64,000 bases of DNA, taken from the IMG/VR virus record IMGVR_UViG_3300009537_004349; one strand, written 5' to 3'. Origin of the DNA: a virus. Lineage: Duplodnaviria > Heunggongvirae > Uroviricota > Caudoviricetes. The position numbers and the translations under genes were made by a program. The notes under the pieces are model-generated. The model did not search any database. It saw only the letters and a program-made list of their open reading frames with translations, and was not told the DNA's origin. Numbering within the stretch: the first letter of the stretch is position 1; each line of letters opens with the position of its first letter. Below are positions 17,678 to 33,617 of the stretch, one piece after another.

Positions 17678-17697
17678 TTGCCTACCTTTATTCGAAA

Positions 17698-18486: not shown

Positions 18487-18701
18487 CTTAGGTCTTCCTT
18501 GATATCTTCTAGATTGGCATTAACTATCTCAGGCTTAGCACTAATTATCAATCTTTTATCTAGGTCTAATCCTCTAATAGCCTCTCTTATTCTTCGCTTA
18601 ACCTTATTCCTCACTACTGCTTTCTTGCTCACCTTCTTGCTCACCCGAATCCACACTTTGTCCTTGGAGTCTTTTGAGAAATAGATTTTCATGTTCTTCA
18701 T
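18462..18701 (-). CDS. rnpA: ribonuclease P protein component (RnpA-like, short form)
   Basis: VSKKVSKKAVVRNKVKRRIREAIR matches the RnpA RNR motif (A-x-x-R-N-x-x-K-R-x-x-R); downstream ...ISAKPEI...L..DL..L also RnpA-like. Confidence 0.65.
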   Translation of the reverse strand: MKNMKIYFSKDSKDKVWIRVSKKVSKKAVVRNKVKRRIREAIRGLDLDKRLIISAKPEIVNANLEDIKEDLRWLRKKQS

Positions 18702-18936
18702 TTTCCCAATCCTTTATAGACTCAGAGTGCCTCTTTAGGGTATCGAAGTGCTTACCATTAGCAATCTTCTCAAAGACTTCACGAGGCAAGCGGACTGTCA
18801 CTCGTTGACCATCAAACTCCCATTGTGGTTTGCCCAGCTGGAGGTAGATAGCATCAGGCTCCATGCACTCTAGATACAGATGAAAATCGGTATCATCATC
18901 TGCATTCTTGTATTCCACGGTAACCTTGGTGCTCAT
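18604..18936 (-). CDS. hypothetical acidic protein
   Basis: 110-aa ORF. Confidence 0.45.
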   Translation of the reverse strand: MSTKVTVEYKNADDDTDFHLYLECMEPDAIYLQLGKPQWEFDGQRVTVRLPREVFEKIANGKHFDTLKRHSESIKDWENEEHENLFLKRLQGQSVDSGEQEGEQESSSEE

Positions 18937-18937
18937 A

Positions 18938-19540
18938 CTACTCTCCTTGCACTACCACATGGGTAATATTGCCCTGGTCATCTAGTCGGACATAACCACG
19001 GAGTTGGTCATCGAAAGGCTCACAGTCGAAACCATACCCCATGACATCATCAAAGTCATCTGCCGGGTCAAGGTCAGAATCTCGCTCGCTGGAAGTAAAC
19101 CAGTTAGACAAGTCAGTCGTCTCAGCAAATTGTGCATCAGTAAGTGGCGACGTAAACTCTGCATCGAGTGCAGGGCGGTTGTTCGCACACCAATCTACTA
19201 TAGCCTGACGGCAAGTGTTGTAAAGTGCTACTCGTTCAAGTGCACCAGGCCCAGGCCCGGTCGAAGCTGGGACAGAATCATCATCCTCTGTATCAACCTC
19301 GTCGCCTGTATCTGTGGGCATTACAAAGGGAGTATCGTGAGAAATCCCAGCAATGTGCAGATGAGCAGCATAAACCTCAAAGCTTTCTCTCATATAGGGC
19401 TGGAAGTCATCCAAAGCCTCGACCGCATCTTCTCGTGTGAAAAATACTCGGTCATCATGAATTCTTGTCTCGTTAGGCAGCGAACCATCTCCTGGCTTTG
19501 CTGCAATCACATAAATCTCGTGTGCTACACCATTAGGCAT
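18938..19540 (-). CDS. hypothetical acidic protein
   Basis: 200-aa ORF. Confidence 0.5.
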   Translation of the reverse strand: MPNGVAHEIYVIAAKPGDGSLPNETRIHDDRVFFTREDAVEALDDFQPYMRESFEVYAAHLHIAGISHDTPFVMPTDTGDEVDTEDDDSVPASTGPGPGALERVALYNTCRQAIVDWCANNRPALDAEFTSPLTDAQFAETTDLSNWFTSSERDSDLDPADDFDDVMGYGFDCEPFDDQLRGYVRLDDQGNITHVVVQGE

Positions 19541-19955
19541 CTTTATTTTCCTTTTTAGTTAATACCTTGTAAAAACCAGAAATATCTTTTAGCTCCACGT
19601 TCCATCGCCCGTTCTTGTATTCGAGGGATTCACCAACTTTAATGAACCCTCCACTTTCCCAGGCCCATGAGACATACATGGAGCTATCACATGACACATA
19701 GTATCCTTCTTTTGCCAGAGCAATAGCTATCGCTAATCTCTTGGTAAAGTTCCATGCTAGTGTCCATCCAACAAAATAAAACACTCTGTTTTCACCTGAC
19801 GACACGGCACGTTTAATGTCGCTTTCCACCTTTGCCAGCTTTTTCTGGAGCCATAGTGGACGCTCCTCTACCATAGCCTCGGCTTTCTCGATCATATCAC
19901 TATACTTTACGCCGTAAGCTTTCAGTAAAGTATGTGCGTCAGATGCATTTAGCAT
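19533..19955 (-). CDS. hypothetical protein
   Basis: 140-aa ORF. Confidence 0.5.
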   Translation of the reverse strand: MLNASDAHTLLKAYGVKYSDMIEKAEAMVEERPLWLQKKLAKVESDIKRAVSSGENRVFYFVGWTLAWNFTKRLAIAIALAKEGYYVSCDSSMYVSWAWESGGFIKVGESLEYKNGRWNVELKDISGFYKVLTKKENKDA

Positions 19956-20165
19956 TTACTTAACCTCTCTTGCCACCCAGTTATGATTCTTCCACTGGTT
20001 AAATTGCTCTTTAGTCACAGCTATAAGAGTGGCACCGTCACAATTTCTGGCTGTGATAAACTCTTCGTCTCCATTACTCTTAACTCTGTAGAAAGCATAA
20101 AGCGGCGTACTATCAATTCCGGTATAGCCATACCTAGATTCGTCTAATACAACCTTAACGCTCAT
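19956..20165 (-). CDS. hypothetical protein
   Basis: 69-aa ORF. Confidence 0.45.
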   Translation of the reverse strand: MSVKVVLDESRYGYTGIDSTPLYAFYRVKSNGDEEFITARNCDGATLIAVTKEQFNQWKNHNWVAREVK

Positions 20166-20766
20166 CAGCCATTAGCTTTTCTACAATGTTATACACGCCA
20201 GGATTCAATTCCTTAATCCTGGGCACTAACTCGTGCCTGATATAGTTCCTCTTGTACTTTGTGTCTACATTAGATGGGTCTTCTACCCAGTTATAACCAT
20301 GCCAGTTCATGTAGTTTTCGATATCTTCCCGCTTCCACAAACGGAATGGCCGAATACAATTTTTGTTACTGTATTTAATGGTACCAGGATATCCTCGAAC
20401 CATCGTACACATGATGTACTCTTCCAAGCAATCATCGAAGTTGTGGGCAAGAATAACCGGCTCTGAAAAACTATGAAAGAAGTTGTACCTCTTCTCTCTC
20501 CACCAAGCCTCCCTAGATTCCCCCTTTGGTGGCTCCTCTTCTAAGATGTGCCACTTGCAAGTAACGCCGTAGTATTCCTTCATAGACAGCACAAAATCAT
20601 ATGCCTCGTCAGAATACAGCCCTGTCTTGTGGTTTACATGTAGCATTCCCAAGAGATTATCTTTCCTTGACTCTTTGTAGAGCCAATGAAATGCTGCCAT
20701 GCTATCGATACCACCACTCACAGCAACCCAATACTTTTTAGGCAATGGATGTGTCAGTCTGAACAT
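20155..20766 (-). CDS. tilS: tRNA(Ile)-lysidine synthetase-like PP-loop ATPase (TilS N-terminal domain)
   Basis: VAVSGGIDS PP-loop, HVNHKTG and AHNFDDCLE motifs as in the TilS catalytic domain. Confidence 0.65.
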   Translation of the reverse strand: MFRLTHPLPKKYWVAVSGGIDSMAAFHWLYKESRKDNLLGMLHVNHKTGLYSDEAYDFVLSMKEYYGVTCKWHILEEEPPKGESREAWWREKRYNFFHSFSEPVILAHNFDDCLEEYIMCTMVRGYPGTIKYSNKNCIRPFRLWKREDIENYMNWHGYNWVEDPSNVDTKYKRNYIRHELVPRIKELNPGVYNIVEKLMADER

Positions 20767-20954
20767 AGTTGTTCACCAAGTCTTCTTAGAGTTCTAAGAT
20801 AACCAGGGAGCCGCATCGCCTTTTCCTGAACAATATTAGCTCCCATGCCACCGAATCCTTTATCTAGTCTCACCTTAGCTGCGTATGCCCTATAAGCATC
20901 TCGCACTTCAACTTGACATCTTTTAAGAATCCGTTCCTCTTGTTGCTTGTCCAT
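20754..20954 (-). CDS. hypothetical protein
   Basis: 66-aa ORF. Confidence 0.4.
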   Translation of the reverse strand: MDKQQEERILKRCQVEVRDAYRAYAAKVRLDKGFGGMGANIVQEKAMRLPGYLRTLRRLGEQLCSD

Positions 20955-21345
20955 CTTCTACTGCCTGCTTAATCAAATCTGGTGGAAGCACATCATCCAC
21001 TGCTACCACATCGTAAAAACGAAGGGATGTAAGTTCGTATAGTTTTTCGAATTGCTCATCAGTTAGACCGCTGAGATTGAGTTCATAGTGGTCATTTGTG
21101 TCAATACCGAGACTATCTAAGAAGTCTACCATGCCACCCGCATCAATTTCATCTAGGCCATAACAATACTGACCAATTTCGTTTCTCTTCAACTCCTCGA
21201 TATTCTTCTTCTGACAGTACAAATTAGCCAGCTTCTTGTCATGAAAAACTTTTACAGGCTCACCATTACTACCACCTTGGTTGTTGTAGTATACTTCATC
21301 GTTATACTCGAACCCAATCCTAACTAGGACGTACATCGTGCTCAT
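20923..21345 (-). CDS. hypothetical protein
   Basis: 140-aa ORF. Confidence 0.5.
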   Translation of the reverse strand: MSTMYVLVRIGFEYNDEVYYNNQGGSNGEPVKVFHDKKLANLYCQKKNIEELKRNEIGQYCYGLDEIDAGGMVDFLDSLGIDTNDHYELNLSGLTDEQFEKLYELTSLRFYDVVAVDDVLPPDLIKQAVEDGQATRGTDS

Positions 21346-21748
21346 CTTCTTGTTCCTTTCTTACTAACTTGGCCAGCTTCTCTACGAAAAACTTAGGAAA
21401 CGAAAACCACGCTTGCCTATCCAGGTGCTCATAGTAATCATTCAGAGACGGAATCCAGCCCAAATCTTCCTTGATATGTTGTTCGGCGATGTCCCTCACC
21501 TGTACTTTATTACCATCGCTGTTGGTAATATAGGTCGTCTTTATAATTGTTCCATCTTGCTTCTGAATAAAATCACCAAAAGCTTTTTCAACTATGAAAC
21601 ATCCAAAAGCATGATGTAATGCTGCTCTGTGTCTAGCATCAGCCATTACAGCCTTTGAAGAGTCCATAAAGTTGTGAATCTCGATATAGTCTTCAGGTAT
21701 GCCTCCCCATAGCTTGGCACTGTTTCTTGCGTGCCTGTATGGTTTCAT
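21320..21748 (-). CDS. hypothetical protein
   Basis: 142-aa ORF. Confidence 0.5.
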   Translation of the reverse strand: MKPYRHARNSAKLWGGIPEDYIEIHNFMDSSKAVMADARHRAALHHAFGCFIVEKAFGDFIQKQDGTIIKTTYITNSDGNKVQVRDIAEQHIKEDLGWIPSLNDYYEHLDRQAWFSFPKFFVEKLAKLVRKEQEDEHDVRPS

Positions 21749-22158
21749 ATTGGCAACTCCTCCACTACAAGCTTGGCAATCTCTGCATCAGACAGGGACT
21801 TGATAGAGTCCTTATTCCCCCCTCTAATTTTCACGAGAATGTCCCTGCAAATCTCTGGGGTAAGAGCCTCGGCACCAAATTCTTGATTAAACATCTCTAC
21901 TCTGGACCAATCAGGAGCCTCTACTAGATTCTCTACATCCAGGTCACACAGGTTTCTTATAGCCATCAACATTACGTGTTCTACATAATGCCTATCACAC
22001 ACGGGGATGCTTAGTTGTCCCTTGAACATCAGCCGATTATTCACGCCACCTTCGCAGGCTGAACCCATATTCCATACACAAGTTAATGGGCTCGTGTCTT
22101 CACCGTCTTTTCTTTTTTCTATGTTCTGTGAAAGAAAGACTGCACTTTCTTTAATCAT
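21745..22158 (-). CDS. hypothetical protein
   Basis: 137-aa ORF. Confidence 0.5.
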   Translation of the reverse strand: MIKESAVFLSQNIEKRKDGEDTSPLTCVWNMGSACEGGVNNRLMFKGQLSIPVCDRHYVEHVMLMAIRNLCDLDVENLVEAPDWSRVEMFNQEFGAEALTPEICRDILVKIRGGNKDSIKSLSDAEIAKLVVEELPI

Positions 22159-22268
22159 CGTCGTCTCTTTTCCTACACTTAAGTTTATCTTGTTCCTTCT
22201 TTTTATTTTTAATAGGGCCAGCAGAATTGCGAAACCACGCTATCACTGCGCCCCAATCACGAGGCTTT

Positions 22269-22472
22269 CTAGCTTTGGTCTGCTTCTTTTGCTTTTTCCT
22301 CCGCTTTCCTTTTGACATTTTTGATACCCTCGTTTAGATTGCCGAGAAAGACACCAGCGGTTCGTCCTAGAAACTCTACATAGGTCTCCTCATAAGCAGG
22401 ATCGTTGTATGTCTTGAAACTCCAGTATCCCAGAGTAAACATGCCAACACCAATCACAAGCCATTCTAGCAT
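22269..22472 (-). CDS. hypothetical small membrane protein
   Basis: 67 aa with N-terminal TM helix. Confidence 0.4.
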   Translation of the reverse strand: MLEWLVIGVGMFTLGYWSFKTYNDPAYEETYVEFLGRTAGVFLGNLNEGIKNVKRKAEEKAKEADQS

Positions 22473-22825
22473 TTCTTCTTGCCCCTTTTCTTTCTAATAA
22501 CTTTAGTCCTTTTAGTAGGTTTTTCTCTTAGGTCCATAGTTGCTCGGGCTAGCAGCACAACCAATTTGCCCTGTTCGATTTTATCCTCGTACAACTTACC
22601 TAAGTATTTCTTTTCCTCTTGAACGAATTTCTGATACAGCTTTTCATCTTCCCAGCCGTTGTTAGATATGGCCACAAAAGTTTTAACCAGAGCCTCAGGA
22701 AATTTCTTACGCTGTTGTTCGTTAGTTTCAGGCTCATAGTTTGTGGACTTAGGTATCCTGCTCCTGCGTTTTCGTCTTTTCTTTTTGGGCATAAATCCTA
22801 ACCTTACCTGATAAAATATCCACAA
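22466..22825 (-). CDS. hypothetical basic protein
   Basis: 119 aa, K/R-rich termini. Confidence 0.45.
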   Translation of the reverse strand: MWIFYQVRLGFMPKKKRRKRRSRIPKSTNYEPETNEQQRKKFPEALVKTFVAISNNGWEDEKLYQKFVQEEKKYLGKLYEDKIEQGKLVVLLARATMDLREKPTKRTKVIRKKRGKKKC

Positions 22826-23023
22826 ACTCTTGTAGACTTATTATTCGTTTTATGCTTCCACTAAAGCTCCACTTCTCAAACTCTGTACGTTCATTAAGGG
22901 AAAAACTCTTACCATCCTTAAAAATGGCGCAACCCAACTCATCAATGGTGCGTTTCAAACAAAGCACATCGCAATAGATTGTAAAAATATAATCGGGAAC
23001 GCCAACAGGATTTTTGTTTAGCT

Positions 23024-23097
23024 TGGCTGGGGAAGAAGGACTCGAACCCTCACTACTTGGGCCAGAACCAAGCGGCCTGCCATTAGCCGATTCCCCA
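23024..23097 (-). tRNA. tRNA-Gln (anticodon CUG)
   Basis: TGGGGAA acceptor, anticodon arm CTTGG-TTCTGGC-CCAAG, GGTTCGAGTCC, CCA. Confidence 0.65.
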
Positions 23098-23334
23098 TTT
23101 TGATTTAGAATAGCCATATGAAAGTAAATGTTAGAGACCATCTATTTAAGTCATAGCTTCTGGCATCAGCACAAATACTCGTTGAATTATCTGACCAACA
23201 TGGATGAGCAAATGCATGTATCATCCATATGTCTTTATTCAAGAACCTTACAATAGGATGCACAGGCTTGGGCGGTAATTTTGGCGGAGGATCAAATGGT
23301 CCACATAGCATCATAGCTATCACCGCCGCCTTTA

Positions 23335-23592
23335 TCATTTGTCTACGTATTCAACTACATTATCCAGGAAGTGCAAAACAGTTTTCTTAATAAACTCTTT
23401 AGACATGCATTCGGTATAGCACACTACCTTATCACCCTCTTTGACGAAACCAAACTCGCCAAAGCCTACACCTTTTGCTCCCCACTGCAATAGGAAGCCG
23501 CCGTCATTATGTGGGTGTTTGTCCCAAGTTTGTAATTCGGTATAAACAAACTCTGGATTTTCTCTTGCCGCCTTGAGTTCTTCAGGCGTCAT
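23335..23592 (-). CDS. hypothetical protein (start at Met43 after the tRNA)
   Basis: Track ORF 23335..23718 begins inside tRNA-Gln; ATG at 23590-23592. Confidence 0.45.
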   Translation of the reverse strand: MTPEELKAARENPEFVYTELQTWDKHPHNDGGFLLQWGAKGVGFGEFGFVKEGDKVVCYTECMSKEFIKKTVLHFLDNVVEYVDK

Positions 23593-23606
23593 ATCGAATA
23601 ACGATT

Positions 23607-23680
23607 TGGCTGAGGAGGAAGGACTCGAACCCTCATTACCTGGGCCAAAACCAGGCGTCCTGCCATTAGACGACTCCTCA
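23607..23680 (-). tRNA. tRNA-Gln (anticodon UUG)
   Basis: TGAGGAG acceptor, anticodon arm CCTGG-TTTTGGC-CCAGG, GGTTCGAGTCC, CCA; paralogous to the 23024 tRNA. Confidence 0.65.
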
Positions 23681-23698
23681 TCGGGTTGTTGAGGACCG

Positions 23699-23890
23699 TC
23701 ACTTTGATTGCCAGTCATGATAAGCTCTCCATTCTTCGCTACTTTTCCACTTCTGACCTATATCAGTGTGTAGAAACTCAGCAAATTTTTCAATAAAACC
23801 AGGCTGATGGAACAGTTCGTCAAAGCCTCTGTGAAATCTAGAGGCCCAAAACAAATCGTGCTGAATTTTTAGTAGTTCCACCCGTCTCAT
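23699..23890 (-). CDS. hypothetical protein
   Basis: 63-aa ORF. Confidence 0.4.
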   Translation of the reverse strand: MRRVELLKIQHDLFWASRFHRGFDELFHQPGFIEKFAEFLHTDIGQKWKSSEEWRAYHDWQSK

Positions 23891-23927
23891 ATTTGTTATT
23901 ATACCTGGTTAGTCTCCATCGTCAAGT

Positions 23928-24302
23928 TCATTTTGTCATTTGGGCTCGTGCTTTGATGTATTCCATTAAAGGGATAACATTAACATGCTTTTTGAACCAC
24001 TCGTTTCTTAGTCTCAAGACCTCTTGAGAAAGCTCGGCAGATGGCTCTACTCCTAATTGCTTGGCTACATTCACGGGATTTAATCCACTGTATTTGCTCA
24101 CTGCCCATAAGGGATGAACAATCCTACGTGCCATTGTGGTAGCCCAGCTAAGACTATTCCAGAAAAACTTACCTCGCATTTGTACGGGCTTGCCATCTAC
24201 CAGAACAATGTATCTGCCCTCAGGATTAAACTTTGAGAAGTTATATCGGGCAGCCTTGTTAATAAGTTTCTTTACTTCCAGTTCTTGTTCTTCAGTAAGC
24301 AT
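23928..24302 (-). CDS. hypothetical protein
   Basis: 124-aa ORF. Confidence 0.5.
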   Translation of the reverse strand: MLTEEQELEVKKLINKAARYNFSKFNPEGRYIVLVDGKPVQMRGKFFWNSLSWATTMARRIVHPLWAVSKYSGLNPVNVAKQLGVEPSAELSQEVLRLRNEWFKKHVNVIPLMEYIKARAQMTK

Positions 24303-24485
24303 CTATCTTATCACCTTAAGTTTTCTTTCCTCTGTCAGCTCTATCTTTCTTTCGTCTAGTAAATCCCACATATACTTGCGCGCTTCATAAGGCAAGCCAT
24401 CCTTAAAACCCATAACTCTTGCCAATTCCGTTGGACATAATCCATCTGGGTTTAGGCTAAGAATATATAGAATTACCCCTCTCAT
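24303..24485 (-). CDS. hypothetical protein
   Basis: 60-aa ORF. Confidence 0.4.
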   Translation of the reverse strand: MRGVILYILSLNPDGLCPTELARVMGFKDGLPYEARKYMWDLLDERKIELTEERKLKVIR

Positions 24486-24826
24486 TTTAGTTCGTACTTA
24501 TACAACAGCCTCACAAGCATTTTCGCTCTAGCAGAAGACACATCGCACTTTAACATTTGCACATAATCATCTGGATTTTGGGATACTGCTGTACACCTTT
24601 CATAAAAGTACAGGGCGTTATTAAGATTACCTTTTTTGAACTCCCTGTCGCCCCATCGCCTTAACACCCAGGCAATAAATGAAAGCTTCTTATACAAGTA
24701 GCTCATTGCCCAGTCCCGGAGCAGTACATCATTTATAAAGAAGATTTTTCTACGCCAGCCTCTTATGCCATCTAGATTGCCGTGATGAAGTAACCATTCT
24801 GCGACAATCTTCTTCATTCTCAACAT
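24482..24826 (-). CDS. hypothetical protein (start moved to Met18, downstream of the rnpB 3' end)
   Basis: Track ORF 24482..24877 overlaps the RNase P RNA P4/P1 3' strands; ATG at 24824-24826. Confidence 0.4.
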   Translation of the reverse strand: MLRMKKIVAEWLLHHGNLDGIRGWRRKIFFINDVLLRDWAMSYLYKKLSFIAWVLRRWGDREFKKGNLNNALYFYERCTAVSQNPDDYVQMLKCDVSSARAKMLVRLLYKYELK

Positions 24827-24832
24827 GTTCGA

Positions 24833-25240
24833 ATCTCGGAGTAAGCCTGTAAGCTGGATTCTGTCTAGTGCAATCATTCATCTAGGCTTACCATTACTGA
24901 TAAGCTCAAGCCTCTTACCCGCCAGCACATCGAGCCAATGTATAGCTGGTCTATTTTGAGTTGCAACACCTAGAGTTTAGCCGTTTCACCCTTGTTACTT
25001 ACCTGGGGCAGTACCTTCCACAACTAGTGAGAGCGGCCATCCCCTTATAGGCTCTCAGGGTTTTATTGGTTGTAACAAGACTCGTCTCTGTTCCACTAGT
25101 CCTCACCTCACGGTGGATGGGCGTTACCCACTAGGTTGCTCTGTGTTGTCCAGACTTTCCTCTGCATAGCCACAAGCTAAAGTTTTCAGTGGCGGCGGAC
25201 GCAAGCTCCTTGTATGCAGCGATTGCACGGATTACTCCGT
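24833..25240 (-). ncRNA. rnpB: RNase P RNA, bacterial type-A-like (rnpB)
   Basis: Minus strand carries conserved RNase P blocks in order: AGGAAAGTCTGGAC, GGGTAACGCC, ACAGAGA...AACC, GATGGCC, CAGGTAAG...GGGTGAAA, GGCTAAACTC, CAAAATAG, GGGTAAGAGGCTTGAGC, CCTAGATGAATGA, ACAGAATCCAGCTTA. P1 pairing CGGAGTAA (25232-25239) with TTACTCCG (24837-24844). No ORF at or above the 60-aa track cutoff across this 365-bp gap. Confidence 0.75.
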
Positions 25241-25244
25241 TATG

Positions 25245-25451
25245 TTAGCCTGTAACCCGAACGTCCTTAGCTTCCTTACCCTTTTTGCCTTGAACGACAT
25301 CGAATTCCACGCTCTGTCCATCTTGCAATGACTTAAAGCCATCACTTTTGATAGCGGAGAAGTGTACGAATACATCTTGTCCTCCGTCATCAGGAGCGAT
25401 AAAACCGTACCCCTTAGACTCACTAAACCACTTTACTGTACCTGTTGCCAT
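25245..25451 (-). CDS. cold-shock protein (CspA family)
   Basis: [34 protein letters not shown]... has both RNP1 (KGYGFI) and RNP2 (VFVHF) motifs. Confidence 0.9.
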
Positions 25452-25618
25452 TTGTTTTGTTTTTCCTTTGTTAAAATTTCCCTACTATTTTTAATGTATG
25501 GCTGAAAGAATGCAGGGAAACTTCCTAAATCCATATACTCTAGAGGCATAATGGTACAGTCAGGTCTTAACATAATCCTGTACATTCCCAATACACTTAT
25601 AGAAAACTTCTCATTCAT
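25433..25618 (-). CDS. hypothetical protein
   Basis: 61-aa ORF. Confidence 0.35.
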
Positions 25619-25619
25619 A

Positions 25620-26018
25620 TTACAATTTCGTTTCTAGACTTTCATCATATGGAAAGTTGCGGTCGTTATCATCTCTAAACAACTGACATGCCGAGCCTTG
25701 TCCAATGAGAAGTCTCCAGATAAACTTAGTTCCTCCTAAGTTAAAGTATGCCAGATACTCAGGAAAAATATCAGCCTTTCCTGCCTTAATTCTATTGCCC
25801 GCCTGTTGTTCTAGGTATCTAAACACATCAGAATAATCTCGGCGACTAAAGGGATAGTCCTTCTCGTTGTAGGCAATATTCTCATCGTCTAGATAATCTA
25901 CATTGCTAAGATGGTCAACTATCTGAGCTAACTTATCTCGCCCATTCTCTAGCCGCTTCTCTTCCTCAGCAAAATGATTCCTTACTGATTCTCTAAACGC
26001 CTCTTTGTCTAGTTCCAT
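25620..26018 (-). CDS. hypothetical protein
   Basis: 132-aa ORF. Confidence 0.5.
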   Translation of the reverse strand: MELDKEAFRESVRNHFAEEEKRLENGRDKLAQIVDHLSNVDYLDDENIAYNEKDYPFSRRDYSDVFRYLEQQAGNRIKAGKADIFPEYLAYFNLGGTKFIWRLLIGQGSACQLFRDDNDRNFPYDESLETKL

Positions 26019-26031
26019 TTCGTTTCCTCGC

Positions 26032-26106
26032 TGGAGCCTGGAATGGGGTTCGAACCCATGACTTCCTCCTTACCAAGGAGGTACTCTACCACTGAGTTAC
26101 CCAGGC
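26032..26106 (-). tRNA. tRNA-Thr (anticodon GGU)
   Basis: GCCTGGG acceptor, anticodon arm CCTCC-TTGGTAA-GGAGG, GGTTCGAACCCC, CCA. Confidence 0.7.
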
Positions 26107-26107
26107 G

Positions 26108-26572
26108 CTAATAACTTTTATCGTTAGATTCACGTGTACATTGCCAATCGTAACAGTATGACTTGCCATTGATATTTATTGTCGACTCGTTTCTATTACA
26201 TACACAGCACAAGTTTCTATGAGTTTCGCATGTGTAAAACCCATAGTCAGCATCAGCTCCACACCATGCCCAGCGACATTTGTCTCTTCCGTTAGATGAC
26301 TCGAACATCTTTTGGATACGAGCTAATCCTTCATCTGGAACACCGCGCTTGAGTACGCCACGCTCTTTGATGTCCATGCGCCAGCCTAACTTCTTTGACC
26401 AATACTTACCAAAAAAGAAAAGCATAAACCTGTCTTTTAGCTTTGGCTTCTTATTCTTATGGGCGAATGGATCAGCTGGCCATATACTTAAGCCTGACTG
26501 TTTAAACCTATAGTTCTTGTTTTTCAGGTAGAGATAATACAGGAAGCCAATGGTCTTATCAAATTTTTCCAT
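26108..26572 (-). CDS. hypothetical Cys-rich protein
   Basis: 154 aa; C-terminal CRWAWCG...C..H..LCCVCN...C..C cluster. Confidence 0.5.
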   Translation of the reverse strand: MEKFDKTIGFLYYLYLKNKNYRFKQSGLSIWPADPFAHKNKKPKLKDRFMLFFFGKYWSKKLGWRMDIKERGVLKRGVPDEGLARIQKMFESSNGRDKCRWAWCGADADYGFYTCETHRNLCCVCNRNESTININGKSYCYDWQCTRESNDKSY

Positions 26573-26795
26573 AGTATTCCTGATACAAAGTGTTGTTCTT
26601 AGAGAAGCTCTCAGTAATCACCCAGTCATAGTTCTCATCCTTGGTAACTTTTGTGAATCTCTCTGTCACAAAGACACGCTCTAGCCACACCCAGAACTTA
26701 TCATCTGTTCTGCGGGGAGTCCAACAAAACTTAAACCTGCGTCTGATGTCTCCTGGCTTATGCTTCAGTTTCTTCGGTTTCAGTCTCAGCTTCAT
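26559..26795 (-). CDS. hypothetical basic protein (start at Met26)
   Basis: N-terminal 25 codons of the track ORF overlap a better ORF in another frame; ATG at 26793-26795. Confidence 0.35.
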   Translation of the reverse strand: MKLRLKPKKLKHKPGDIRRRFKFCWTPRRTDDKFWVWLERVFVTERFTKVTKDENYDWVITESFSKNNTLYQEYYGKI

Positions 26796-26976
26796 TTGTA
26801 AACCGTGCCACTTCCCAATCAAACTGGGGAAACTCCATGCCATGTGCCCAGCCCATAACAGCCTGTCCATTGGCTGCGTCTAACCACTTCTGAGCCTGTT
26901 CGCCAGTCAATCGCTGAACAGTACCATCATCGAACTCCATCTCAATCCTAACTGCCTTCTTCTCGTCTGACATCAT
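26758..26976 (-). CDS. hypothetical acidic protein
   Basis: 72-aa ORF. Confidence 0.45.
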   Translation of the reverse strand: MMSDEKKAVRIEMEFDDGTVQRLTGEQAQKWLDAANGQAVMGWAHGMEFPQFDWEVARFTNEAETETEETEA

Positions 26977-27362
26977 AGCTCCTTAGCTTTCTGCTGAAAC
27001 CTATCGTAATGTTCTTTGTATTCCTGCCTAAGCTTTTCTGTTTGCCTCTTAGATAGTCCGCCACGATTAATCATGAACTCACGGCGTCTCTGTTTAAGAA
27101 TGCCTGTTATAGTAGACTGTAGATGCTCAGCAATAGGGGTGGGTAACTCCATACCTCTTGCTCGTGCCCTTATATCTTTGTTGAGCATAATCCAAATGTG
27201 CTCATACATTCTACGATTAGGGCTGCCATAGAGAAAGTCTAAGGTTTCATGCAGCTCAGCAATAAGACACCCTATCTTACGTTTGTATCTTTCATTCTCA
27301 GGCTGTGAAAGCATATGTTGTAACACTAACCCTGCACTACTAACACCATAAGATGCAAACAT
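26973..27362 (-). CDS. hypothetical protein
   Basis: 129-aa ORF. Confidence 0.5.
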   Translation of the reverse strand: MFASYGVSSAGLVLQHMLSQPENERYKRKIGCLIAELHETLDFLYGSPNRRMYEHIWIMLNKDIRARARGMELPTPIAEHLQSTITGILKQRRREFMINRGGLSKRQTEKLRQEYKEHYDRFQQKAKEL

Positions 27363-27607
27363 TACTTCTCTCCAGAAGTATCAATCTCTGAGAAATCCCC
27401 TAGTGCATCATTCACCATAGACCTCAAACGCTGCGCATGAGACCTACATAAATAGATATCAACTCTACCGCCAGCATCTTCTGCTACCAAATGAAAGGCG
27501 TAGTCACCAGATGGTATCTTTTTACGACGCAGAGAACCGTGCTCATTGACTCTTGGGCACATTCTGCATCTTGATTTACCTGTAGCTGTTTCTACTTCAA
27601 ACTTCAT
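27362..27607 (-). CDS. hypothetical protein (start at Met19 after the tRNA)
   Basis: ATG at 27605-27607; upstream part of the track ORF is tRNA-Gly. Confidence 0.45.
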   Translation of the reverse strand: MKFEVETATGKSRCRMCPRVNEHGSLRRKKIPSGDYAFHLVAEDAGGRVDIYLCRSHAQRLRSMVNDALGDFSEIDTSGEK

Positions 27608-27616
27608 ATTAACCCT

Positions 27617-27692
27617 TGGAGCGCGTGCACGGGTTCGAACCGAGGACCTCCACCATGGCAAGGTGGCGCTCTACCAGCTGAGCTACACGCGC
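27617..27692 (-). tRNA. tRNA-Gly (anticodon GCC)
   Basis: GCGCGTG acceptor, TAGCTCAGCTGG D-arm, anticodon arm CCACC-TTGCCAT-GGTGG, GGTTCGAACCC, CCA. Confidence 0.75.
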
Positions 27693-27754
27693 TATTCCAT
27701 TATGTACTTCGATATAGCATGTTGCAAGCATACGCTATCGGTTTTATTTTGCAT

Positions 27755-28312
27755 CTATTTAATATCGTTCTTTTGAAACAACCTTATTCTTACATTAAAT
27801 TCTTCCCACATGCGCTTAATCATTGCTACCTCTATACCCTGCGGACTATTGATAGAGGCTCTAATTGCACCTGAATCGCTCTGATCATGAAACATATAAA
27901 ATACGTAATCAAAATCACCGCTAGCGGTGTGCATTATAGACTGGCCTATGCCTTGTTTGATAACACTACCATTTGGGCTTTGCTTATACTCTATTGCCAT
28001 CTTGTATGGCTCATCAATGATAAAGTCAGGGTAGTTTCTCGCACCAAAGACTGGTCGTTTAGGTTCACCATATTTGCCCTCTTGCCCTTCCCAGTAGAAA
28101 GACTTGTGTGCCTTTTTAATAGGATCTTTAAGCCCCTGATCTCTAAAATAAAACTCAAGATAACTAATGATGATGGGACGTAATTCTGCCTGCACCTGAG
28201 CCTCAGATTTAGTAGTGGTCTTTATTCTAAATTGAGGATGACTAATAATAAAGTCATACATTCTATCCATAAATTGAATAACATTATTGGTTTTCTTTTT
28301 TAACTTAATCAT
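27755..28312 (-). CDS. PD-(D/E)xK nuclease-family protein
   Basis: YPDFIIDEPYKMAIEYKQ fits a PD...(D/E)xK core. Confidence 0.45.
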   Translation of the reverse strand: MIKLKKKTNNVIQFMDRMYDFIISHPQFRIKTTTKSEAQVQAELRPIIISYLEFYFRDQGLKDPIKKAHKSFYWEGQEGKYGEPKRPVFGARNYPDFIIDEPYKMAIEYKQSPNGSVIKQGIGQSIMHTASGDFDYVFYMFHDQSDSGAIRASINSPQGIEVAMIKRMWEEFNVRIRLFQKNDIK

Positions 28313-28426
28313 CGCTTTCTCTACTCTCTATTCCACTGTCCCTTTCTACATGAATAGCAGAAACGATACTCGTGCTTTCCGCCAAATATTCTGTCGTACT
28401 GGTCAGCCCAATATGACACATGCCAT

Positions 28427-28762
28427 TCAGTCCACTTGTGTAGACCCAGAAGACACAGCATTTTCTTTCTCGTCCCAATACTTTTCGCGAGCCTCTAGAA
28501 ATCTATCTATAAATGCTCGATACTCTTTAGCTGTCTCTGGTCTCCAAAGGAACTCATCAAAGTCTCCAAACCTAGAACGAAACCCAAAGGCATACTTAAC
28601 AGCTTGCCACAATCTACGAAGGAAGGTTTTCTGGCGAAGATGAATCTCAACATACATTTCTTCTGGCTCATCCTTAAAGTAGGACACCCGTAGAATGTGG
28701 TCCATGTCTCCACAGTCACATTCAAAATACTCTGTATCTGTCAAGTCTTCTCGCCAGCTCAT
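28427..28762 (-). CDS. hypothetical protein
   Basis: 111-aa ORF. Confidence 0.5.
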   Translation of the reverse strand: MSWREDLTDTEYFECDCGDMDHILRVSYFKDEPEEMYVEIHLRQKTFLRRLWQAVKYAFGFRSRFGDFDEFLWRPETAKEYRAFIDRFLEAREKYWDEKENAVSSGSTQVD

Positions 28763-28763
28763 A

Positions 28764-29702
28764 TCAACCTCCTGATGGTGAGCAACAATCCTCTTCCATT
28801 GGCTCAGCTTTGGTTTCAGCCATCTTTTCAGCCAGCTTATGAGCCAGTCTCAAGGTGCTGAGCTTATTGTTGCCATTGCCAAGCAGCAAATCTTCCTGCT
28901 CCATGCGTCGAATCTTGGCGATAGCATCATCCAACGATACCTCAAGCACCAACACGCTGATGATAAGGTCCTTCAGGTGGTCGATGGTAAGACCCTCAGT
29001 CTTATCCACCCATTCTTGCAGGTTAACATTGTCATCCCGGTGAACCTTAGCATGGATGAATGCCTTACGAAGAGATGGTCCCGGAGGCCCAATCTCAATA
29101 ACATCTGCGAATCGAGAGGGGCGATTACGAATTCTTGGCGGAATTTGCTCCAGGTAGTTGGTCGTTGCCAAGAAAAATGCATTGTCTACCTGGTCAACAC
29201 CATCCAATAGGTCAAGCAGGTCTCCTTCACACTTATCTACCCATCGCTCAAACTCTTCCCAAACAACCATAACGGGTCGGTCGGTCTTTTCAATCTCTCG
29301 AACATAGTCTACGATATAGCAGACCAAGGCAGGCTCAGGGTTAATCAAAACCACCATATCCTTCTTTACTGCTTGTCGCATAAGAAGATGAACGATAGAA
29401 GTCTTACCAGTGCCAGGAATACCGTGCATCAAGAGTCCACGCTTGTATAGCAGGTCATATCGCTCGAAACGCTTACGGACATCCTCTGATAAAAAGTAGT
29501 CTACTTCCTTGTTGATTTTCTCAGCAGGACTACCTGGCAAAGCAATAAGTTTGTCAGTGTGAGTCTCGAAAGGATTCAGATAGATATTGCCAAACTGGTC
29601 TTGTGAGGCACTGTAGGTTCCAGCGGGTAGCTTCTGTAGCTTATTAACAGGACCAGAGAACCGAATGGCACCATCTTCCTGTTGTAGATATTGCGTAATC
29701 AT
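28764..29702 (-). CDS. AAA+ ATPase
   Basis: Walker A HGIPGTGKTS; Walker B hhhhWEEFE; arginine-finger-like region downstream. Confidence 0.65.
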   Translation of the reverse strand: MITQYLQQEDGAIRFSGPVNKLQKLPAGTYSASQDQFGNIYLNPFETHTDKLIALPGSPAEKINKEVDYFLSEDVRKRFERYDLLYKRGLLMHGIPGTGKTSIVHLLMRQAVKKDMVVLINPEPALVCYIVDYVREIEKTDRPVMVVWEEFERWVDKCEGDLLDLLDGVDQVDNAFFLATTNYLEQIPPRIRNRPSRFADVIEIGPPGPSLRKAFIHAKVHRDDNVNLQEWVDKTEGLTIDHLKDLIISVLVLEVSLDDAIAKIRRMEQEDLLLGNGNNKLSTLRLAHKLAEKMAETKAEPMEEDCCSPSGG

Positions 29703-30025
29703 TAAAGTCTTTCCTCGATGCCATCATTTAGAAGGCGGTCTAATTTATCTTGTTTAGTAAGTTTCTTCGGCTTTGGTCGTTGTTCCCAGGCATACTCTAT
29801 GTGACTCACCCAGCTCTGAATATGATTTGTATTAAGGTCAATCATAGCCATAGGGAATATGATACCTGTTAGTCCTGCTGTGACAAAACAAAATACAGCA
29901 TATGGGACTACCTGGTATTGCAACAGGATAGTCCCGGCCAGCGCCAAGGCAAGAACCCAGGCATATACCATAAGAAGTACCATCCCTTTGGTCAGGAACT
30001 TCATCATCCAGATTATATGTCTCAT
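29702..30025 (-). CDS. hypothetical membrane protein
   Basis: 107 aa with three hydrophobic helices. Confidence 0.5.
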   Translation of the reverse strand: MRHIIWMMKFLTKGMVLLMVYAWVLALALAGTILLQYQVVPYAVFCFVTAGLTGIIFPMAMIDLNTNHIQSWVSHIEYAWEQRPKPKKLTKQDKLDRLLNDGIEERL

Positions 30026-30044
30026 TGTTCTTTTCTTTTTCGAT

Positions 30045-30120
30045 GGTGGAGCCTACCGGGCTCGAACCGGTAACCTTCTGCGTGCAAGGCAGATGCTCTC
30101 CCAAATTGAGCTAAGGCCCC
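30045..30120 (-). tRNA. tRNA-Ala (anticodon UGC)
   Basis: GGGGCCT acceptor, anticodon arm TCTGC-CTTGCAC-GCAGA, GGTTCGAGCCC, CCA. Confidence 0.7.
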
Positions 30121-30158
30121 ATCTTAATTATACTACTAATTATTAGCGTGTCAAGCTT

Positions 30159-30335
30159 TTATGGCATAAATAACACACAGGCGTCATGCCAATTACCAGT
30201 CCGATGCCCAATCTCATACTCGTCATACTTGATTCTAACATATCCTTTGGGCATATTAGGGTATGGATGATTAGAGAGTTTGTTCTTTTTTCTCAGAGCC
30301 GCAACGTATAGCTTCCTAATATCCCCGTGAATCAT
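30159..30335 (-). CDS. small hypothetical protein (58 aa), paralog of the next gene
   Basis: Own translation MIHGDIRKLYVAALRKKNKLSNHPYPNMPKGYVRIKYDEYEIGHRTGNWHDACVLFMP; shares HPYPNMPKGYVRIK with 30332..30550; ATGA overlap with the upstream stop. Confidence 0.4.
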   Translation of the reverse strand: MIHGDIRKLYVAALRKKNKLSNHPYPNMPKGYVRIKYDEYEIGHRTGNWHDACVLFMP

Positions 30336-30550
30336 CTTGAAGCCACAGGAAAAAGAAGGAGGTTTGAAGGGTCATCCGAATAGATTAACTCATTATCCCA
30401 TGAAATACGACCCTTATGTTTTATCCTAACATACTCTTTGGGCATATTAGGATACGGCTCGCTCATCTCTATGTATTTACCATCCAGGGCACTAATATAC
30501 ACCCTTATTATTTTTTCGTCAACTCTGATTTGACTTACTGACATCTTCAA
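30332..30550 (-). CDS. small hypothetical protein (72 aa), paralog of 30159..30335
   Basis: Contains EPYPNMPKEYVRIKHKGRISW. Confidence 0.45.
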   Translation of the reverse strand: MKMSVSQIRVDEKIIRVYISALDGKYIEMSEPYPNMPKEYVRIKHKGRISWDNELIYSDDPSNLLLFPVASR

Positions 30551-30800
30551 GTCTTTCTATATATTCGATTGGACTAACACCAGGCTCAAGCTCCACGATG
30601 TTAACGAAGCCATTCTCTTCCGTAATGATTGACTCTTTAGGCTTCACAGCACCAGGATACTTAGGCTTAACCTTTTCTAAACCAGAGCCAGGGATTTGAT
30701 TCCCCCAATCACCATCTGTCTTGCCGCCCTTTTGAATAGGCTCTACACAATAGAGCTTGCCTGATTTAGAACGTATGTAAAATCTGCCTGTCTCGCTCAT
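30519..30800 (-). CDS. hypothetical protein
   Basis: 93-aa ORF. Confidence 0.45.
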   Translation of the reverse strand: MSETGRFYIRSKSGKLYCVEPIQKGGKTDGDWGNQIPGSGLEKVKPKYPGAVKPKESIITEENGFVNIVELEPGVSPIEYIERLEDVSKSNQS

Positions 30801-31369
30801 TTCTTGTTCCTATACTCGTTCCATATCTCCAAGTCAAACTCGGAGACGCTCTTGCCAGCTTTATCAGCCTCCAGCAAGAACCATTGCTCGATTTGTTTAT
30901 ACTTCTTTCCGGTTGGTGTAGACTTAGGAACATTATACCCTTTGTCTCTCAGAAAGTTAAGTGCATGTCTATCTAACCCAGCTAGTCTTTGGTTAGGTCG
31001 GCTGTGAATAAGAAAGCATCGTGCTGTCTTTGGTCCGATGCCATGAATAGCTTCTAGGTCATCTACTGTACATGTTCTAAGATTAATGCCGGAGTCGACT
31101 AAATGTTGAAATGATTTAGCCTTAGAGCTATAGCAACCGATTCCTGCGTATTTCAACCAAGCAGGAAGTTTATCATAAAATCTTCTCAGCATCAGAAAAG
31201 GCTGCCGTTCTTGTGGAGGATAATCTTCCTCCATACTACCCAGCAATCTCTCTAAACAAGTTGCCGCCGTTACTCCGTTCTTGCCAGCCGCACATACCCA
31301 GAACAGAATGTGCTCTTCAAGCTCGTAGTCGGTGAGATTATAGTTGGTTATGTTCGTCGGGTCTAGCAT
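30797..31369 (-). CDS. HhH-GPD superfamily base-excision DNA glycosylase-like protein
   Basis: LEAIHGIGPKTARCFLIHS helix-hairpin-helix plus Gly/Pro-rich loop. Confidence 0.55.
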   Translation of the reverse strand: MLDPTNITNYNLTDYELEEHILFWVCAAGKNGVTAATCLERLLGSMEEDYPPQERQPFLMLRRFYDKLPAWLKYAGIGCYSSKAKSFQHLVDSGINLRTCTVDDLEAIHGIGPKTARCFLIHSRPNQRLAGLDRHALNFLRDKGYNVPKSTPTGKKYKQIEQWFLLEADKAGKSVSEFDLEIWNEYRNKK

Positions 31370-31544
31370 GAATAGGCTCTAAGTACAGGATGCACACCTC
31401 ATGTTCTTGAGAAGTGGGCTTGCTGTTTTTGTATATGGGAAGCCACCTATATATACTGCGTCCTCCTCCATCTTCTTCGTGACTAGAGAGACGTGGGCCA
31501 TTAACTAATGCCTGCAAGTATAGATGGTATATTTCTCCCGTCAT
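31338..31544 (-). CDS. hypothetical protein
   Basis: 68-aa ORF. Confidence 0.35.
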   Translation of the reverse strand: MTGEIYHLYLQALVNGPRLSSHEEDGGGRSIYRWLPIYKNSKPTSQEHEVCILYLEPIHARPDEHNQL

Positions 31545-31843
31545 TTAGGACTCTCAATCTTAACTGCCTTACCATATATCGTTCGTGTCCAGCCATTAAT
31601 ACCACCACGATTGTTACCAATAAGAAACTTTGTACCGTGAATAGCTTTGACTAGATGAAGGTACACATTGCCCTTGACCTTGCAAAGAACTATATCTCCA
31701 ACCCCTACATCTTCAGGCTGAATAGGGTCAACGGTTACAGTAGAGCCGCTCTCTACCTTGCCCTTCATAGAGTTTCCGTGTGGCTTAATGACAGTAGTAA
31801 GTCCAGCCTCTAAATCTTTGATAGCTCTATTTGCCCAGCCCAT
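31541..31843 (-). CDS. S24-family (LexA/UmuD-like) peptidase domain protein
   Basis: PHGNSMKG...VTVDP...GDIVLCKV...YLHLVKA resembles the Ser-Lys dyad region of S24 peptidases; no N-terminal HTH. Confidence 0.5.
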   Translation of the reverse strand: MGWANRAIKDLEAGLTTVIKPHGNSMKGKVESGSTVTVDPIQPEDVGVGDIVLCKVKGNVYLHLVKAIHGTKFLIGNNRGGINGWTRTIYGKAVKIESPK

Positions 31844-33601: not shown

Positions 33602-33617
33602 CCAATGCCTCTTTCGT

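Follow-up and report, generated by a model that had tools for sequence, protein, structure and literature searches.

Does a tRNA-rich phage genome encode its own ribonuclease P (RNase P)? The question is raised by a locus in the 64,000-nucleotide (nt) stretch taken from the IMG/VR record IMGVR_UViG_3300009537_004349, the whole of which is called the window below. An original prediction, made by reading the letters, had placed a type-A RNase P RNA there on the minus strand, starting at the stop codon of a cold-shock protein gene (csp). To our knowledge RNase P is regarded as a universal cellular enzyme, and the literature on phage tRNAs assumes maturation by the enzyme of the host. The analysis described here makes it likely that a huge phage encodes a complete RNase P of the bacterial type, consisting of a 405-nt RNA (25238..24834) and a 79-amino-acid (aa) RnpA protein (18701..18462), with which it would mature its own tRNAs.

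A type-A RNase P RNA behind the cold-shock gene

In a cmscan search of Rfam 15 the minus strand from 25238 to 24834 matched RF00010 (RNaseP_bact_a) with 209.5 bits (gathering score 100; E 1.8e-66), a score far beyond chance. The match is untruncated, spanning model positions 1-367 of 367, and contains five non-canonical pairs. An Rfam search and folding of P1-P4 with the P4 pseudoknot had been named in the original prediction as tests of its reading; the search gave this significant match, and the P1 and P4 pairings were found to be intact. P1 is formed by GGAGUAAUCC and GGCUUACUCC (cmscan alignment and direct reading), and the closing strands that had been proposed for the two ends are in place (CGGAGTAA, 25239..25232, and TTACTCCG, 24844..24837). 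P2 (GUGCAAU/AUUGCAC) is paired in seven of seven positions, and P4 pairs AAGU(bulge)CUGG with CCAGCUU, leaving a bulged U.

The universally conserved regions CR-I to CR-V are all intact (GAGGAAAGUC, ACAGAGA, GGGUGAAA, AGAUGAAUG and ACAGAAUCCAGCUUA), most of them being invariant in the alignment of 18 RNAs described below. P8 is present, the loop of P9 is GUGA (a GNRA-type L9), J11/12 reads ACAGAGACGAG, and CR-III (GGGUGAAA) continues directly into the 3' strand of P11 (CGGCUAAACUC). The type-A periphery is also there: P15-P17, the P6 pseudoknot, the GGU of loop L15 and P18 with its GNRA loop, with covariation supporting P15, P16 and P18. All sequence blocks listed in the original prediction were found on the minus strand in the order given (Table 1), but GATGGCC and CAGGTAAG, which had been counted among the canonical conserved blocks, are part of an expansion of P12. 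Its central reading as a type-A RNase P RNA stood; the loss of P13/P14, the expansion of P3 and P12 and the presence of RnpA in the same window had gone unmentioned. Taken together, the sequence features confirm that 25238..24834 is a gene for an RNase P RNA of bacterial type A, located in a genome that is phage-like and rich in tRNAs.

Conservation of the RNA in related genomes

Relatives of the locus were reached through homologues of RnpA (see below) and of an AAA ATPase encoded at 28764-29702. The contigs L169 (481 kb) and L170 (177 kb), whose ATPases are 63-66% identical to that of the window, carry full-length RF00010 RNAs with 208 and 192 bits, respectively. L233 has the order of the window (ATPase - csp - RNA (180 bits) - DUF6915 - TilS - RnpA), and the TilS gene order of L237 is the same as that of the window and L233. 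In L234/L235/L236 (210 bits) and in L242 (114 bits, nhmmer) the RNA lies 1.4 kb upstream of RnpA; the RNA and RnpA thus occur together in L233, L234-L236 and L242, which represent three further related genomes. The order tRNA-Thr - csp - RNase P RNA - tRNA-Gln(UUG) - tRNA-Gln(CUG) is common to the window, L233, L169 and L170.

Eighteen RNAs, eight from a window-like context, five from within tRNA arrays and five from a bacterial context, were aligned (734 columns). Owing to the insertion in P3, MAFFT misaligned P2/P3 of the window, and P2 was thus checked sequence by sequence: all of its pairs form both in the window and in close relatives of it, with differing sequences. Unconstrained RNAalifold predicted P1, the P4 pseudoknot, P5/7, P8, P9, P10/11, the base of P12, P15, P16 and P18 from the alignment, and at least one compensatory double change was present in 44 of the 63 predicted pairs. 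P4 covaries at three positions (CUGG/CCAG in the window, CCCG/CGGG in L234); a U-A pair of the window P4 is C-G in most relatives, a compensatory double change. In P6 the relatives display GAGC/GCUC, UGGC/GCCA, GGAC/GUCC and UGGA/UCCA.

The closest relative of the window RNA is that of L234, with 74% identity; the differences in P7, P9, P12 and P18 are compensated and the GNRA loops kept. An expansion of P12 by about 75 nt is common to these two RNAs and almost invariant between them, and the two pairs that do differ in P12 changed in a compensatory manner (basal stem, U-A to C-G; inner hairpin, U-A to A-U), which points to a structured, functional insertion. Other relatives have expansions at other sites, as exemplified by P16/P17 of L169 and L170. 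In L184 (700-1121) and L202 (997-1519) large insertions in P12 and P16/17 contain sequences resembling tRNA T-arms (GGTTCGAATCC, GGTTCGATTCC), as if tRNA fragments or T-loop modules had entered the ribozyme.

The protein subunit

The gene for the putative protein subunit was found by a regular-expression search for the 'RNR' motif of RnpA, which occurs as KAVVRNKVKRRIREAIR in a 79-aa open reading frame (ORF) of the window; the motif belongs to helix alpha2, and its V, R, N and R are invariant in an alignment of 16 sequences. The protein matched PF00825 (Ribonuclease_P) at profile positions 26-107 of 109 with 48.7 bits (cut-off 22.3; E 8.7e-13), and its closest solved relative by sequence is the RNase P protein of B. 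subtilis. An AlphaFold2 model built from the 16-sequence alignment was confident (pLDDT 87, pTM 0.72) and had the alpha-beta sandwich fold known from solved RnpA structures. The top 15 Foldseek matches of this model in the PDB were all bacterial RNase P proteins (query TM-score 0.58-0.79), the best ones (0.77-0.79) including 1a6f and 4jg4. AGGA is located 8 nt upstream of the ATG.

The homologues of the protein are 79-83 aa long with 55-62% identity, and one gene call of 65 aa has 91% identity. The truncation relative to the profile is common to them, therefore the short RnpA is conserved and not an accident of gene calling. Another ORF (18604-18936, minus strand), encoding an acidic 110-aa protein without a Pfam match for RnpA, overlaps the RnpA ORF in a different frame, over the first 98 nt of the latter. 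In the gene calls for the close relatives L237-L239 RnpA was cut to 65 aa to avoid such an overlap; the N-terminal beta1 residues are nonetheless conserved across the relatives.

Nature of the genome

All 140 ORFs of the window are short, mostly without an assigned function, and located on the minus strand, with an ORF coverage of about 95%. Matches were obtained to 57 PHROG families, and the assigned functions include a T4-type Rnl1, HAD_SAK_2, NADAR, NAD synthase, NAPRTase, the N-domain of TilS, NUDIX, a NinI-like phosphatase and an SPFH protein common to crAss-like phages; NAD-salvage genes are typical of jumbo phages. The tRNA genes are scattered singly among the ORFs, outside cellular operons. 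An Rfam scan detected no rRNA in the window, and the 25 Pfam families listed of the 54 matched included none of ribosomal proteins or RNA polymerase. The AAA ATPase has a counterpart with 100% identity on a JGI metagenome contig of 291,701 bp, and its relatives among 50,697 GenBank phage records were limited to one Xanthomonas phage and three huge uncultured phages (462-595 kb). For the ATPase and Rnl1 the nearest genomes are LR756500, LR756508 and LR756511, the best Rnl1 match being one of these huge phages. Relatives of the window reside on 177-481-kb contigs, sizes compatible with huge phages, and contigs with the same RNA clade are classed as viral by IMG/VR. On this gene content the window very probably belongs to a phage.

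The same features speak against the alternative that the contig is non-viral (from a symbiont or another small cellular genome, or from a giant plasmid or other extrachromosomal element), with its RNase P being the housekeeping copy. In favour of such an origin, the almost complete set of tRNAs, TilS and RnpA, and also the EF-G of relatives, resemble cellular functions, genes for virions and packaging were not found in the 64-kb window or in the examined relatives, NCBI has one relative contig binned in a metagenome-assembled genome (MAG) of Promethearchaeota, and Al-Shayeb et al. (PMC7162821) describe some large putative plasmids with similar translation gene sets. Weighed against the single-strand gene arrangement, the phage-type families and the relatedness to huge phages, a non-viral origin seems improbable. 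The binned relative, L170 (JGI 3300041085 contig Ga0452209_000086, 177 kb; in NCBI within a 'Promethearchaeota archaeon' MAG), contains a bacterial-type RNase P RNA, csp, EF-G and bacterial-style tRNAs, and is probably a misbinned phage contig.

Several observations weigh against the interpretation that a phage encodes a functional RNase P here. Capsid, portal and terminase genes were among those missing from the window and the examined flanks of the relatives, and the assignment to phages rests on gene content and distant relatives. Scanning for promoters near the ribozyme gave signals at chance level only, and no terminator was detected. Folding of the single sequence by minimum free energy was uninformative (z -0.99 with the RNA as a whole, +0.59 with P12 and its expansion), as expected because the RNA is pseudoknotted, and for this reason covariance-model alignment and comparative analysis were used. 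The crude neighbour-joining tree, in which the phage RNAs grouped together and L210 fell among the cellular RNAs, is without support values. RnpA was not found in other phage-context loci by an HMM search, which covered short flanks only, and the window RnpA ORF shares 98 nt with the overlapping ORF described above, an overlap from which rnpA of L233 is free. RnpA begins at strand beta1, its N-terminal helix alpha1 (the first ~29 alignment columns), present in every full-length homologue, being missing. In solved bacterial holoenzymes (PDB 3Q1Q, 1A6F) alpha1 is part of the central cleft that binds the 5' leader, and without it leader binding may be weakened. Finally, the P13/P14 cruciform of the E. 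coli-type consensus is missing from the window RNA. P13/P14 stabilise the specificity domain. Their loss is no bar to membership in RF00010 because it is documented family variation (PMC8172020) and cellular homologues with the same loss pass the threshold (see below).

Proposed function

With the genes, tRNAs and ribozyme on one strand and almost no spacers, the window would be transcribed into long polycistronic RNAs. The ribozyme would be released from the segment that starts 6 nt past the csp stop codon; its fold into the standard type-A core (P1-P5, P7-P12 and P15-P18, with the P4 and P6 pseudoknots) is shown by the covariance-model fit and the compensatory changes. By homology, the ribozyme would bind the phage RnpA through the helix carrying the RNR motif. 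The elements present are consistent with recognition of phage pre-tRNAs through the stacked T-arm and acceptor stem and through pairing of the GGU of loop L15 with the 3'-CCA, described as the 'RCCA-RPR interaction' (PMC11143913); a 3'-CCA is encoded in 26 of the 27 window tRNAs. Cleavage at +1 would then generate the mature 5' end. Of the 28 structured RNAs (27 tRNAs and the ribozyme), 18 start within 15 nt of the stop codon of the upstream ORF (median 3 nt), and several overlap it. Because most tRNAs abut the upstream ORF, each cut by RNase P would also separate the flanking mRNAs. In this way the phage would itself supply the one enzyme that maturation of its 27 tRNAs requires, whatever the type of the host RNase P and whatever its amount or fate in the course of infection.

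A more far-reaching version can be put forward as possible rather than probable. It envisages a self-sufficient, minimised RNase P in which the P12 expansion replaces the stabilising role of P13/P14 and the protein lacks alpha1, and which, by a mitochondrion-like tRNA punctuation, matures about 27 tRNAs and splits the transcripts into mRNAs independently of the host RNase P. In this version the genes for virus-encoded RNase P would form a class of viral ribozyme that is widespread and so far undescribed, as the type-A signature is found in the tRNA arrays of at least 15 further viral contigs, 10 of them full-length by Rfam.

The RNA and the protein might also be made chiefly for a purpose other than tRNA supply, be it the punctuation or processing of mRNAs or a conflict with the host (titration of host RnpA, replacement of a shut-off host RNase P, or, together with the neighbouring RNA-repair genes, countering of tRNA-targeting defences). 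The close spacing of tRNAs and ORFs, by which every cut also cleaves an mRNA, the RNA-repair set of the window (Rnl1, HAD_SAK_2, an AAA_33 kinase-like protein and NADAR) and the fact that RNase P cleaves some mRNAs and phage RNAs (PMC11143913) fit with such a role. It would, however, still require the same catalytic activity, and is a refinement of tRNA maturation by a phage RNase P, not a replacement for it; a pure decoy would leave the conservation of all catalytic elements, of the L15 GGU and of the encoded CCA ends unexplained. A main job of this kind is given little probability. It is highly improbable that the RNA has no function, being either the decaying remnant of an rnpB acquired from a host or a chimera with host DNA produced by the assembly: phage genomes do acquire host fragments, many generic-pattern matches in IMG/VR lie at contig ends without a tRNA array, resembling host flank or contamination, and GenBank 'phage' records with RNase P RNA look bacterial, but the window RNA is full-length with few non-canonical pairs and all conserved regions intact, its helices are kept by compensatory changes relative to its relatives, its syntenic position is preserved in genomes with no more than 55-69% identity between the flanking proteins, a conserved rnpA accompanies it, the ORFs on either side are phage-like and lie on its strand, and there is no close bacterial match (best cellular core identity 71%).

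Neighbouring genes and tRNAs

The coordinates of the RNA and its elements, of the RnpA gene and of the neighbouring genes are collected in Table 1.

Table 1. Features of the 64,000-nt window discussed in the text (CR, conserved region; positions as read, strand and basis of assignment)
Feature	Position	Strand	Basis or remark
RNase P RNA, bacterial type A, 405 nt, without P13/P14	24834..25238	-	RF00010; homologues in same gene order in L169, L170, L233
P3 hairpin, expanded, 59 nt, window-specific	25162..25220	-	42-nt insert relative to consensus in cmscan; P3 of L234 is 21 nt
CR-I and P4 5' strand GAGGAAAGUCUGGAC	25148..25162	-	pairs with 24864..24850
P12, expanded, 91 nt, conserved internal branch	24990..25080	-	near-identical in L234
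CR-III fused to P11 3' strand, GGGUGAAACGGCUAAACUCUA; P13/P14 absent	24971..24991	-	cmscan: 43 model positions reduced to 0 nt
P17 and L17	24927..24941	-	L17 GCUC pairs with GAGC (J5/7, 25141..25138), forming the P6 pseudoknot; direct reading
L15/J15-16 GCGGGUAAG, GGU partner of tRNA 3'-RCCA	24914..24922	-	GGGU invariant in alignment
P18, GUAA (GNRA) tetraloop	24887..24904	-	all 8 pairs covary or are kept; loop GNRA in relatives
CR-V and P4 3' strand ACAGAAUCCAGCUUA	24850..24864	-	P4 pseudoknot; unconstrained RNAalifold; covaries at 3 positions in 18 RNAs
Predicted block AGGAAAGTCTGGAC	25161..25148	-	direct reading
Predicted block GGGTAACGCC	25129..25120	-	direct reading
Predicted block ACAGAGA	25091..25085	-	direct reading
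Predicted block GATGGCC	25041..25035	-	direct reading; within lineage-specific P12 expansion
Predicted block CAGGTAAG	25005..24998	-	direct reading; within lineage-specific P12 expansion
Predicted block GGGTGAAA	24991..24984	-	direct reading
Predicted block GGCTAAACTC	24982..24973	-	direct reading
Predicted block CAAAATAG	24958..24951	-	direct reading
Predicted block GGGTAAGAGGCTTGAGC	24920..24904	-	direct reading
Predicted block CCTAGATGAATGA	24886..24874	-	direct reading
Predicted block ACAGAATCCAGCTTA	24864..24850	-	direct reading
RnpA-like RNase P protein, 79 aa, without helix alpha1	18462..18701	-	PF00825; ORF 18701..18462
Cold-shock protein gene (csp)	25245..25451	-	Pfam CSD, 106.7 bits; directly upstream of RNA
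Downstream ORF, no Pfam match	24482..24826	-	probable start ATG 24826 or 24817, rather than 24877
TilS-like tRNA(Ile)-lysidine synthetase N-domain	20155..20766	-	TIGR02432, 114.8 bits (cut-off 93.6); Pfam PP-loop; between RNA and rnpA
27 tRNA genes, single, dispersed among ORFs; presumed substrates	1243..62406	-	ARAGORN
tRNA-Thr(GGU)	26032..26106	-	ARAGORN; begins 1 nt past upstream ORF stop; member of conserved block
tRNA-Gln(UUG)	23607-23680	-	ARAGORN; downstream member of conserved block
tRNA-Gln(CUG)	23024-23097	-	ARAGORN; downstream member of conserved block

The placement of the RNA at the csp stop codon was borne out: the CSD match identifies a real csp gene, whose stop codon ends at 25245, 6 nt from the 5' end of the RNA. 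An overlap of the RNA 3' portion with ORF 24482..24877, also claimed, turned out to be an artefact of choosing the longest ORF, the ATG in question being the AUG within the universally conserved CR-IV (AGAUGAAUG), and the in-frame ATGs at 24826 and 24817 are immediately past the 3' end of the RNA. In IMG/VR no relatives of the two ORFs flanking the RNA were found. That the RNase P RNA originates from the csp transcript is plausible. The upstream neighbour in the relatives is not csp in every case; in L233, L169 and L170 csp is located 0.3-1.8 kb upstream of the RNA. In L169, L170 and L234 the RNA is separated from the flanking ORFs on the same strand by no more than ~12 nt, or overlaps the upstream ORF call by 6 nt, and in L233 there is an 84-nt gap upstream of the RNA.

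About 28 tRNA genes had been claimed for the window; the ARAGORN count is 27. The TilS-like protein consists of the N-terminal catalytic domain only (203 aa). A tRNA(CAU) at 17698-17774 (-) has the same acceptor stem (AGGCCCG/CGGGCCU) as tRNA-Ile(GAU) at 50162-50237 (-), and is probably a tRNA-Ile2 whose C34 would be converted to lysidine by the TilS-like protein of the phage. The tRNA with the anticodon CUA (amber suppressor; 'Pyl' according to ARAGORN) at 45231-45308 (-) is the sole window tRNA without an encoded 3'-CCA, and a CUA tRNA is also present in L172, L180, L211, L234 and L242. The ORFs of the window are normal under the standard code, therefore any recoding of TAG would be elsewhere in the genome. 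Genes for RNA repair and NAD metabolism (46836-47942, 56399-59497 and others, all on the minus strand) encode Rnl1, a 'Swiss-army-knife' domain for RNA repair (HAD_SAK_2), a kinase-like AAA_33 protein, NADAR, NUDIX, NAPRTase and a NAD synthase that depends on glutamine, and L169 and L170 further carry Tpt1 (PTS_2-RNA), EF-G and an HD_4 protein. The composition of this set suggests a defence against host systems that cleave tRNAs.

Origin of the RNA

The 18-mer at the junction of CR-III and P11 (UGAAACGGCUAAACUCUA) is invariant in all 18 aligned RNAs. It occurred in 38 metagenome contigs, 3 IMG/VR contigs and 20 GTDB genome contigs. Among its cellular carriers, in which tRNA arrays are missing from the vicinity, are a Bacteriovoracaceae chromosome of 3.7 Mb and MAGs of Bdellovibrionaceae (one), Margulisbacteria and Termititenax. 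Two cellular loci that were examined sit among housekeeping genes (aroA/aroB/aroC in one, valyl-tRNA synthetase (ValRS) and a Mur ligase in the other). Five cellular RNAs scanned with Rfam scored above the gathering threshold; they are about 290-360 nt long and, by alignment and junction spacing, are missing P13/P14. Loss of P13, P14, P16, P17 or P18 was described as 'not unusual' in bacteria (Lui et al. 2021, PMC8172020). Since cellular homologues share the loss of P13/P14 and the literature calls such losses common, the idea of the loss as an invention of phages was rejected; the reduced architecture is inherited.

Most phage-context RNAs have core identities of 70-87% with one another (57-72% in the case of two outliers, L172 and L210), as against 63-74% when phage-context RNAs are compared with cellular ones; the cellular RNAs have 64-71% core identity to the window RNA. 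From these values and the shared architecture, an old capture of the RNA from a bacterium already without P13/P14 in its RNase P RNA is probable, followed by evolution in phages, the P3 and P12 expansions probably being gained in this phage genome after the capture. The RNAs of L221 (OZ223251.1), L220, L227, L229 and L217 have a near-identical specificity domain in a ~290-nt P13/P14-less RNA, despite coming from unrelated phyla. Convergence, horizontal transfer or a connection via phages may explain the similarity across Bacteriovoracaceae, Bdellovibrionaceae and Margulisbacteria/Termititenax.

Occurrence in other viral contigs

A generic type-A pattern matched 48 IMG/VR contigs, many of the matches being near contig ends, without tRNA arrays and resembling host flank. 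In at least 15 IMG/VR contigs, with sizes of up to 455 kb, the type-A signature is located within phage tRNA arrays, often adjoining a tmRNA gene. Full-length RF00010 matches with 139-285 bits were obtained at 10 of 11 scanned loci on large contigs; at the exception, L034, the match lies at the end of the locus. A 14-base probe (GGGTGAAACGGNNAANC) was too unspecific, giving more than 120 mostly chance matches, of which a context filter left three new loci.

In L039, L031, L036, L037, L044, L018 and L045 (IMG/VR, 32-317 kb) the RNase P RNA, tmRNA and dense tRNA arrays are found within a few kb; P13/P14 are kept in L044 and L018 and missing in L039, L031, L037 and L045. On the 202-kb contig L015 an RNase P RNA without P16/P17 is located about 3 kb from a group I intron. 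Very small RNase P RNAs were seen in metagenome contigs with 16-24 tRNAs: L195 (1660-1933, 274 nt), L180 (6560-6810, 251 nt) and also L206, with RF00010 scores of 195-223 bits. In the small array-type RNAs only 16 nt separate CR-II from the junction, and they appear to be without P12 as well as P13/P14, that of L180 also without P18. Loss of P12 was described as highly unusual (PMC8172020).

Among GenBank phages neither an RnpA homologue nor a convincing RNase P RNA was found. The matches to RNase P RNA in GenBank 'phage' records were rejected: they come from mislabelled bacterial assemblies, unverified faecal scaffolds and the Microcystis phage MaAM05. The MaAM05 record (L240, MW495066.1), a 'complete phage genome' in GenBank, contains at 115.28-115.68 kb an unannotated full-length RNase P RNA with 251.8 bits, in a gap flanked by fabI, engB and mtgA, and may include host DNA, its gene content being bacterial-looking. 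A blastn search with three phage-context RNase P RNAs gave no match in the huge-phage genomes of Al-Shayeb et al. In that paper (Al-Shayeb et al. 2020, PMC7162821) only tRNAs and tmRNAs are annotated and RNase P is unmentioned. Virus-encoded RNase P was not found in the literature covered, which included jumbo-phage reviews, Al-Shayeb et al. and a 2024 review of RNase P; this coverage is non-exhaustive and 'unreported' is provisional. The original statement that a virus-encoded RNase P is rarely if ever reported thus fits the literature, yet the feature itself recurs in public viral contigs.

Implications and comparison with known systems

Encoding of both subunits by a virus would extend the list of viral translation genes (tRNAs, tmRNA, synthetases and ribosomal proteins) to a multiple-turnover ribozyme, and would suggest that, when tRNA-rich phages infect, the RNase P of the host is in short supply, is incompatible or has been inactivated. 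The RNAs without P13/P14 (some apparently without P12 or P18) and the proteins without alpha1 are natural minimised variants for structure-function work. As RNase P RNA serves as a bacterial marker, viral contigs carrying it may be wrongly rejected as host contamination or misbinned; one relative is filed under an Asgard archaeon MAG. What is new is the encoding by a virus, the alpha1-less protein and the lineage-specific expansions of the RNA, the RNA family itself being well known.

With the type-A RNase P RNAs (RF00010; E. coli M1 RNA, T. maritima PDB 3Q1Q) the window RNA shares the core CR-I-V, the P4/P6 pseudoknots, the L15 GGU, P18 and the GNRA loops L9/L18. In contrast to M1 and the T. 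maritima RNA, it is encoded in a phage-like genome, starts 6 nt past a protein gene, is without P13/P14, and has a P3 of 59 nt and a P12 of 91 nt. The P13/P14-less bacterial RNAs (OZ223251.1, Bdellovibrionaceae UBA3535, Margulisbacteria/Termititenax) have the same CR-III-P11 junction (UGAAACGGCUAAACUCUA) and a near-identical P8-P11, but they differ in their housekeeping neighbours (aroA/B/C, ValRS) and in having neither tRNA arrays nor the P3/P12 expansions of the window. Reduced forms of RNase P RNA are also found in Candidate Phyla Radiation (CPR) bacteria (PMC8172020). The window protein has the same RNR motif, beta-sheet and alpha2/alpha3 as RnpA/C5 (PF00825; B. subtilis 1A6F, S. aureus 6D1R, T. 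maritima 1NZ0), whereas its length is 79 and not ~110-120 aa, with the alpha1 segment missing, as it is in all 77-105-aa relatives.

The translation genes of huge phages described in PMC7162821 (tRNAs, tmRNA, aminoacyl-tRNA synthetases, ribosomal proteins and release factors) follow the same logic of host-like machinery, and the ATPase and Rnl1 of the window are distantly related to proteins of three of the huge-phage genomes of Al-Shayeb et al. The nearest published idea is that of the phage theta (HDV-like) ribozymes located beside tRNAs, for which processing of tRNA 3' trailers and less reliance on certain host RNases were proposed (PMC10879173). Those ribozymes are small, self-cleaving and act in cis on 3' trailers, in contrast to the trans-acting, multiple-turnover ribonucleoprotein for 5' leaders that is predicted here. 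Organelles, too, encode an rnpB-type RNA of their own in a reduced genome, and in the tRNA-punctuation model of mitochondria interspersed tRNAs serve as processing signals. The window system would resemble organelle RNase P in these respects, but it is viral and also retains a bacterial RnpA.

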